From Pseudomonas phage vB_PaePA10145phi1_MKR2, in the sequence record PV565008.1: 64,000 nucleotides of DNA, one strand, 5' to 3'. The notes under the pieces were generated by a model. That model made no database searches. It saw only the letters and a program-made list of their open reading frames with translations, and was not told the DNA's origin. Both the position numbers and the translations under genes were made by a program. Each line of letters starts with the position of its first letter. The stretch's first letter is position 1. Of the stretch, positions 32,072 through 32,375 are shown in pieces.

Positions 32072-32375
32072 TAATATCCATCCATCTCTCAGGAATGGAT
32101 ATTGTCAAATTGCCTGCTTGATCTCGAAAGAGTCAAGTAAATCCTCTCTAATTGCTGGGACATCTCAATGAGACAATCAGCAGCGAAGCTTTCCAGAAAT
32201 GGATTGAACGTTCAACGACTATCCGGTTACGCGGAGTACACTCAAGCGAGTGGAAATGGGAGGGACCTGACCACCTAGGGTGAAGGTTAAGATATAGTCT
32301 GGTCTGCATGGTGACATGCAGCTGCCTGCAATACGAGAGGCGGGGTAAGCGTAGCGAACTTACCTGAACATAACG
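32072..32375 (+). mobile_element. Compact ORF-less group I intron in the beta gene
   Basis: 304 nt; Q AATTGCTGGGA (32150-60), R GTTCAACGACTAT (32210-22), S AAGATATAGTC (32289-99), P9-like CTGCATGGTGACATGCAG; last 12 nt CTGAACATAACG identical to intron 1. Confidence 0.75.

Follow-up and report, generated by a model that had tools for sequence, protein, structure and literature searches.

In the 64,000-nt stretch of DNA analyzed here (the window; Pseudomonas phage vB_PaePA10145phi1_MKR2, PV565008.1), an interrupted gene encodes the C-terminal half of a β-like RNA polymerase (RNAP) subunit. This raises the questions of what separates the two halves of the gene, where exactly the interruption begins and ends, how it came about, and whether one polypeptide or two are made from it. 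The source of the window is a Pseudomonas jumbo phage of the phiKZ species, and positions 30800 to 33400 (2.6 kb) are 100% identical to KTN4 and many other phiKZ isolates of the genus Phikzvirus. The interrupted gene encodes the subunit known in the literature as gp71-73 (PMC4666361, PMC8287921), the C-terminal half of the β-like subunit (β-C) of the non-virion RNAP (nvRNAP). The translation of the joined exons aligned end to end, and across the junction, with the PDB chain 7OGP_C (“PHIKZ071,” 700 aa); the cryo-EM structures were made with recombinant fused gp71-73 (PMC8287921). Exon 1 ends in the codons ACT GAT TTT CAT GGT GGT (TDFHGG) and exon 2 opens with AAG GGC GTC (KGV), with 78 homologous loci matching exon 2 from its first residue onward. 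In the phiKZ reference genome (NC_004629.1), PHIKZ071 and PHIKZ073 are separated by a gap of 1218 nt, inside which lies PHIKZ072.

Two Rfam matches only were obtained in the 64 kb, at 32093-32321 and at 17860-18180 (85.3 bits). The former is situated between the gene halves and covers the full RF00028 model (positions 1-253) with 84.2 bits (E = 5.9e-20; gathering score, 50). Removal of the intron restores an uninterrupted conserved frame, as in 7OGP_C and in intron-less homologues, including that of phage KEN49. The terminal guanosine is G32375, and the final intron base was a G in 17 of 17 aligned related introns. No endonuclease ORF was found in 32069-32375, where the largest ORFs encode 43 aa (plus strand) and 53 aa (minus strand), neither with a Pfam match. 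An intein and translational bypass were also considered and dropped, as the insert has in-frame stop codons and a full ribozyme. We conclude that positions 32069-32375 very probably represent a self-splicing intron of group I, subgroup IA, in the catalytic motif K-x4-HG-G/K-G of gp71-73, and the endonuclease-deleted allele of the “gp72 intron” of phiKZ (Table 1). A previous sequence-only reading of this DNA had proposed an ORF-less group I intron inside the catalytic motif of an RNAP β-like gene, with its 3′ boundary between G32375 and A32376, and these points were borne out. Mobile (homing) group I introns carry a homing endonuclease gene, which is missing from the window allele; they are also patchily present among close relatives, empty sites included, and such a distribution is found in Phikzvirus.

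Table 1. Coordinates of the interrupted RNAP genes, their introns, and the structural elements of the β-C intron in the window. A slash within a sequence marks a splice junction.
Feature	Position	Strand	Basis or remark
Exon 1, nvRNAP β-C (phiKZ gp71 part)	30875..32068	+	ORF list, 7OGP_C alignment, intron-less homologues with GG before KG
Group I intron, 307 nt, without endonuclease ORF (intron 2)	32069..32375	+	RF00028, family covariation, MFE fold, boundary comparisons
Exon 2, β-C (phiKZ gp73 part)	32376..33299	+	starts KGVICKVMEDEDMP
P1 5′ strand, GGU/AAUU	32066..32072	+	pairs with 32108-32114; predicted cut after U32068
P1-extension hairpin, AAUAUCCAU with AUGGAUAUU	32073..32103	+	loop has putative endonuclease-deletion scar CCATCTCTCAGGA
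Internal guide AAUUGCC, P1 3′ strand	32108..32114	+	just 5′ of P2 across the family; covaries with insertion site
P2 hairpin, CUUGA(U)CUC-GAAA-GAG-UCAAG	32117..32137	+	MFE fold; positional equivalent in every family member
Catalytic core	32142..32321	+	Rfam alignment, pair counts
Core helices (add 32000)	P3, 142-148 with 258-264; P4, 153-158 with 177-182; P5, 163-166 with 170-173; P6, 183-184 with 210-211, plus P6a	+	
Core helices (add 32000)	P7, 217-221 with 295-299; P7.1, 222-225 with 232-235; P7.2, 239-243 with 248-252; P8, 266-286; P9, 304-321	+	
Peripheral hairpins P9.1 and P9.2	32322-32343 and 32344-32364	+	MFE fold, P9.2 covariation
3′ tail, UGAACAUAACG	32365..32375	+	ends in omega-G 32375, then 3′ splice site
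Exons of β′-N gene (gp55)	15614-16858 and 18249-18467	+	joined KAPN/ADFDGD
Intron 1, β′-N gene (gp55)	16859..18248	+	RF00028, 85.3 bits; ribozyme core ~17860-18248
Intron 1 ORF, 334-aa HNH/NUMOD endonuclease	16893-17897	+	Pfam HNH_3, NUMOD1, NUMOD4; starts 34 nt after 5′ splice site

The helices P1 to P9.2 were drawn manually on the basis of the Rfam alignment and the sequence, and 70 base pairs were tested on an alignment of 17 related introns. In this alignment, 78.7% of the cells were paired, versus 35 to 47% when the 3′ partners were slid by 1 to 3 columns, and changes on both sides of a pair were seen in 196 cells, versus 35 to 73 in the slid controls. None of 500 shuffles reached the observed values. 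Paired cells amounted to 83% in P3, 92 to 96% in P4, and 100% in P6, P7, and the outer P8, with many compensatory changes. Similar results were obtained for P7.1 (92 to 94%) and P7.2 (91%), where 8 of the 9 pairs had both-side changes, and for P9.2 (97%; both-side changes in 5 of 6 pairs). The scores of P2 and P9 were lower, probably due to register shifts in the sequence-only alignment; a hairpin is found at both places in every member. The minimum free energy (MFE) fold of 32060-32385 yielded P1, the P1 extension, P2 to P6, P7.1, P7.2, P8, P9, P9.1, and P9.2. Given the presence of P7.1 and P7.2, the intron belongs to subgroup IA, as does that of T4 td.

The internal guide was read in each intron from the segment just 5′ of P2, since a wide-window RNAduplex search gave spurious sites within the core for most introns; three loci missed by a regular expression for the P4 motif (L019, L050, and L062) were placed by eye. 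In 15 related introns, the guide covaried with the insertion point and a G was always found opposite the last exon U. The guide is GCC or GCCACC where the exon ends in GGUGGU/, GCCG where the intron lies one codon upstream (CGGU/), and GGUC after GACU/. A compensatory change was also seen in the intronic part of P1, with GGU/AUUU facing AAAUGCC in L019 versus GGU/AAUU facing AAUUGCC in the window. The guide-like ATTGCC that had been noticed at 32107 is indeed part of this guide, AAUUGCC, but begins at 32109.

Next, the 5′ splice site was placed at 32068/32069, three bases upstream of the intron start at 32072 proposed before. Exon 1 ends in DFHGG at 32068 instead of DFHGGN at 32071, the intron measures 307 instead of 304 nt, and the product does not contain the suggested motif GDKx4HGN/KGV but HGG/KGV, without an Asn, as judged from 7OGP_C, the intron-less homologues, and KEN49. 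Deposited gp71-73 reads MTDFHGG-KGVICK, one residue fewer than DFHGGN-KGV, and the product HGGKGV aligns without gaps with bacterial HGNKGV. Four database homologues with a single ORF through the site have (H/K)GG directly followed by KG or KS, and about 60 of the 78 homologous IMG/VR loci are uninterrupted, all of them reading GG/KG (or GD/KA) with nothing between. The intron-less KEN49 allele (96% DNA identity) reads ACT GAT TTT CAT GGA GGG AAG GGA GTT (TDFHGGKGV). A cut after U32071, with a 304-nt intron and the product DFHGGN-KGV, would instead join GGTGGTAAT/AAGGGC, compared to GGTGGT/AAGGGC for the cut after U32068. There is a U at 32071, the frame would be preserved, an N beside the K is plausible from bacterial HGNKGV, and the exon at intron 1 does end in TAAT. 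Nevertheless, this cut is hardly credible: it would place a residue between GG and K that is absent from all of the homologues mentioned, KEN49, and the PDB chain, and U32071 is paired with A32109 and not with a G, the sole G·U wobble in P1 being U32068·G32112. To our knowledge, this wobble is the universal marker of group I 5′ splice sites. Moreover, in eight other introns at the same site the exon ends in GGT as well, followed by different triplets (TCG, ATT, AAA, TGA, TAA, CGA). Because AA is repeated at both ends of the intron, cuts at 32068 and 32375, at 32069 and 32376, or at 32070 and 32377 would give the same mature mRNA; only the first of these pairs obeys the U...G rule. Since the PDB chain, the intron-less homologues, KEN49, the P1 wobble, and the variation after the exon end all agree, we assigned the intron to 32069-32375. 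The in-frame TAA thought to open the intron is thus intronic but is its second codon, after AAT, and of the two exons said to end in NNTAAT only that at intron 1 does so.

Given these boundaries, splicing would follow canonical group I chemistry. The GGU end of exon 1 and the AAUU start of the intron would pair with the guide AAUUGCC (32108-32114), forming P1, and an exogenous guanosine would attack the 5′ splice site marked by U32068·G32112. The freed 3′-OH of U32068 would then attack after the terminal G32375, and the ligation of GGU to AAG would produce a single mRNA encoding TDFHGG-KGVICK. The window intron would still splice, without self-driven homing now that the endonuclease cassette is gone. 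Since at least 36 sequenced plaque-forming phikzviruses carry the ORF-less allele in an essential gene, we infer that this allele must splice.

The window and phiKZ align collinearly, apart from 911 nt that only phiKZ has; outside these, the identity is 99.75% over 406 nt. The 911-nt segment starts 22 nt into the intron, ends 15 nt before the guide, and encodes gp72, a 316-aa HNH/NUMOD4 protein (phrog_59). In phiKZ, this ORF is located 32 nt past the 5′ splice site, in the loop of a 13-bp P1-extension stem (AUAUCCAUCCAUC with GAUGGAUGGAUAU). NLDGW, near the C terminus of gp72, is encoded by the 3′ strand of this stem, and likewise in L062, whose intron ORF is 49% identical to gp72. The two phages thus have the same gene interrupted at the same insertion point, with the same first 22 and last ~280 intron bases; the window lacks the 911-nt cassette, and its P1-extension stem is of 9 bp, compared to 13 bp in phiKZ. 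The window allele cannot promote its own homing. Intron 2 had been suspected to be an endonuclease-less derivative of intron 1; instead, it is the phiKZ gp72 intron minus the cassette, and gp72 and the intron 1 endonuclease are 27% identical over 157 aa (HNH domain).

Two alternatives to a splicing intron that lost its endonuclease gene were weighed. The gene could be truly split, with a non-splicing relic of the intron between gp71 and gp73 and the subunit assembled from two polypeptides. The two halves are separate CDSs in GenBank and RefSeq records, and RNAP subunits of jumbo phages are split elsewhere. In native nvRNAP from infected cells, however, gp71-73 is a single 74-kDa polypeptide, identified as one band by mass spectrometry (PMC4666361), and most relatives have one uninterrupted ORF. 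An ATG at 32397, seven codons into exon 2 with a weak AAGG motif upstream, makes a separate gp73 fragment conceivable, but such a fragment would lose KGVICKV, and the break lies inside an invariant catalytic motif. A long-read transcriptome of phiKZ by ONT-cappable-seq gave no spliced phiKZ reads and no evidence of self-splicing at gp56, gp72, or gp179 (PMC10914365), a negative result that may stem from mapping settings or from the enrichment of primary transcripts. Against this, the ribozyme elements are all intact, 99.75% conserved between the alleles, and covarying, and this conservation and covariation indicate selection on the structure. A truly split gene is therefore very improbable in our judgment.

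If the intron splices, the ORF-less allele might still be the ancestral one, into whose P1-extension loop the gp72 cassette was later inserted in phiKZ-type phages. The ORF-less allele is the majority allele, and phage introns are well known to be invaded by free-standing endonuclease genes. Such a gain of cassettes does occur in this family, as endonucleases of both phrog_59 and phrog_374 are found in related introns at this site. Insertion, however, would require several remnants to match by chance. The window retains the whole 5′ strand of the stem, the last 9 nt of its 3′ strand, which in phiKZ and L062 consists of endonuclease codons, and a CAGGA that corresponds to TGGGAG, the Shine-Dalgarno (SD) sequence of gp72, and may also be compared with TAGGAG. 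In addition, a 313-nt ORF-less variant (T2P, U1B, U5, and phi9_PA9) keeps TAGGAGGTGAGATG fused to the 3′ end of the ORF, and TAGGAGGTGAGATG is the SD sequence and start codon (ATG) of the endonuclease ORF as in FBPa36. An ancestral ORF-less intron is therefore unlikely. Because the SD/start codon and stem remnants of gp72 survive, the ORF-less alleles probably go back to an ORF-containing intron at the same site that lost its endonuclease gene by deletion.

In the phage collection, the ORF-less allele was the most common, with at least 36 records versus 5 with an ORF and 1 without intron. At least 32 records carry the 307-nt ORF-less allele and four the 313-nt ORF-less allele (T2P group); the 1218-nt allele with an ORF was found in five records (phiKZ twice, OMKO1, fMGyn-Pae01, and FBPa36), a 278-nt allele in one (PaZh_1, an UNVERIFIED record), and the intron-less allele in one (KEN49). 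In PaZh_1 (L083, MN871489.1; equivalent of 32150-32178), a 29-nt deletion removes J3/4, the 5′ strand of P4, P5, and part of the 3′ strand of P4. This deletion should kill a ribozyme on which an essential gene depends; since the record is UNVERIFIED and unannotated, an assembly error seems likelier than a viable phage. KEN49 (vB_Pae3705-KEN49, L081, PP456877.1, 492-530) has a natural intron-less gp71-73 allele in a Phikzvirus. Four synonymous differences are clustered at its insertion site (GGA GGG AAG GGA GTT versus GGT GGT/AAG GGC GTC), the base equivalent to the end of exon 1 is a G and not a U, and these differences could affect recognition by a gp72-type endonuclease.

As mentioned before, a second RF00028 intron is present in the window, in gp55. 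Its junction, KAPN/ADFDGD, is fixed by the invariant NADFDGD and by PDB chain 7OGP_A (a PHIKZ055 + PHIKZ056.1 fusion). The 64-kb window has only two copies of the 12-mer CTGAACATAACG, at 18237 and 32364, one at the 3′ end of each intron, and the P9 hairpin CTGCATGG(C/T)GACATGCAG occurs only at 18163 and 32304. No difference was seen between the two introns in the P3/P4, P4′, P7, and J8/7-P7′ blocks, and the cores are identical at 193 of 221 alignable positions. A plain MAFFT alignment of the two introns misregistered the 5′ third (a P3/P4 shift), and block identities and semilocal alignments were used. The core elements, P9 hairpin, and 3′ end that the sequence-only reading had found in common are thus confirmed as identical and, within the window, unique to the two introns. 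Both are also located in catalytic motifs of one enzyme, with the ORF near the 5′ splice site (for intron 2, in the phiKZ allele). Intron 1 differs in keeping its endonuclease, in a large extension of P5 and additional sequence inserted after P7, and in following an exon that ends in TAAT. For the P1 of intron 1, no convincing pairing was found among the candidates examined. ATTGGG, proposed before as its guide at 17899, starts at 17900 and forms the 3′ side of the hairpin equivalent to P2; in a CCUAAU/AUUGGG pairing, the wobble would fall 3 nt upstream of the junction given by NADFDGD and 7OGP_A. Pairings of UAAU with GUUA (17867-17870) and of AAU with GUU (17882-17884) are weak, and an 8-bp pairing at 17987-17996 has no wobble.

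The two introns had been called sisters, and they are closely related ribozymes, but not exclusively so. Introns at the β site of distant jumbo phages (L073 to L075) score against intron 2 as well as or better than intron 1 does, because they have compact P5 and P7 regions in common with intron 2. The idea that the same lineage had inserted at two RNAP catalytic sites is right in a broad sense, that of one widespread IA-type family: both phiKZ introns are members of a family that repeatedly colonizes the catalytic motifs of jumbo-phage RNAPs. Interruptions, at three positions that span ~12 nt, were found in 18 of the 78 IMG/VR homologues, and 13 of 15 scanned introns reached the Rfam gathering score; the other two (L060 and L062) fell below it yet align well with the family. 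The related introns carry endonucleases of at least two families. In L030 and L070 to L075, the introns lie one codon upstream (HG/GK; guide GCCG), and in L077, L078, and L080 they follow TD (GACU/; guide GGUC). Short (~302 to 435 nt) and ORF-containing (~1.46 to 1.56 kb) versions were seen at two neighboring positions of the motif. The HGG/K introns of L038 and L045 have a 265-aa Cys-rich ORF (at 2801-3598 and 2775-3572, respectively) with no Pfam match (phrog_374 HNH); compared with the phrog_59 of gp72, these ORFs indicate endonuclease turnover within one intron family. A further RF00028 intron (53.8 bits) was observed at L050 6899-7259, where it interrupts the next RNAP gene of this IMG/VR jumbo phage, a homologue of gp74 (β′-C), between residues ~536 and ~576.

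Two known systems can be compared with the window intron. The T4 td intron has P7/J8-7/P9 blocks ~80% identical over ~80 nt, has P7.1/P7.2 and P9.1/P9.2 as well, and also interrupts a conserved enzyme motif. The td ORF lies in a different peripheral loop, whereas the ORF of gp72-type introns occupies the loop of P1, with a long-range stem closing it. The intron of PhiPA3 gp210 is likewise a group I intron that targets the catalytic motif of a jumbo-phage multisubunit RNAP gene; it encodes an endonuclease, which the window intron does not. This endonuclease of a virion-RNAP-gene intron is functional and acts in phage-phage competition (Birkholz et al. 2024, PMC11620839). The locus taken as PhiPA3 in our set (L016) has a 450-nt ORF-less intron exactly at the HGG/K site.

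The presence of introns at this locus is not new. Introns at gp56, gp72, and gp179 of phiKZ had already been predicted in the genome publication of 2002 (cited in PMC10914365); gp72 and gp179 have been described as intron-encoded homing endonucleases, and orf72 deletion mutants are viable (PMC12676376). KTN4 and phiKZ are known to differ in HNH endonucleases (PMC4908380). The feature described here is essentially the already known phiKZ gp71/gp73 intron in its common endonuclease-less form, real and ordinary. The exact boundaries, the ORF-less allele as such, and the family-wide change of guide with insertion site were found in no open-access paper or preprint. What is understood about group I introns and about transcription in jumbo phages is not altered by these results, whose value lies mainly in annotation: at least 36 phikzvirus genomes list an essential RNAP subunit as two unrelated CDSs, often as “hypothetical protein,” with no intron feature, and the boundaries between 32068 and 32069 and between 32375 and 32376 permit the gene to be annotated correctly with a join(). 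Since ORF-less, ORF-containing, and intron-less alleles all occur naturally in a single genus, ready-made strains are available for studies of intron-endonuclease competition.

Since natural ORF-less phages and engineered orf72 deletions (PMC12676376) exist, the nuclease is dispensable, and the natural alleles could help to reinterpret reports from knock-down and transposon screens in which gp72 appears as “essential.” A strong phenotype was described for PHIKZ072 knock-down with an antisense oligomer (PMC12571901). In phiKZ (L002 16455-16500), the 5′ strand of the P1 extension is followed, 5 to 20 nt downstream, by the ribosome binding site and start codon of gp72. An antisense oligomer on this ribosome binding site could produce its effect by hindering gp71-73 splicing, and not because the nuclease is required. 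We suggest, tentatively and with some doubt, that the ORF-less intron may persist by splitting the recognition site of gp72-type endonucleases, making its carrier immune in co-infection, with the corollary that PHIKZ072 “essentiality” would reflect disturbed splicing. If so, the intron would provide a passive defense without the cost of an endonuclease, in the kind of intron-endonuclease warfare that PhiPA3 has been shown to wage on phiKZ, and site protection would explain the majority status of the ORF-less allele. The effects of the PHIKZ072 antisense knock-down and TnSeq would then come from disturbance of P1 or its extension, and thereby of gp71-73 splicing, and not from loss of the nuclease.

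Some further observations concern the small ORFs of these loci. PHIKZ056.1 of the RefSeq phiKZ record (L002, NC_004629.1; 2577-2762) is really exon 2 of gp55, with the DFDGD motif, and PHIKZ072.1 (L002 17465-17575, 36 aa), probably a spurious ORF, lies within the core of the gp72-intron ribozyme. Across the deletion scar of the window, positions 32095-32121 form an 8-codon mini-ORF (ATG GAT ATT GTC AAA TTG CCT GCT TGA) that overlaps the guide, and the T2P allele has an analogous mini-ORF with an intact SD sequence upstream. Translation of such a mini-ORF through the guide could compete with the formation of P1.
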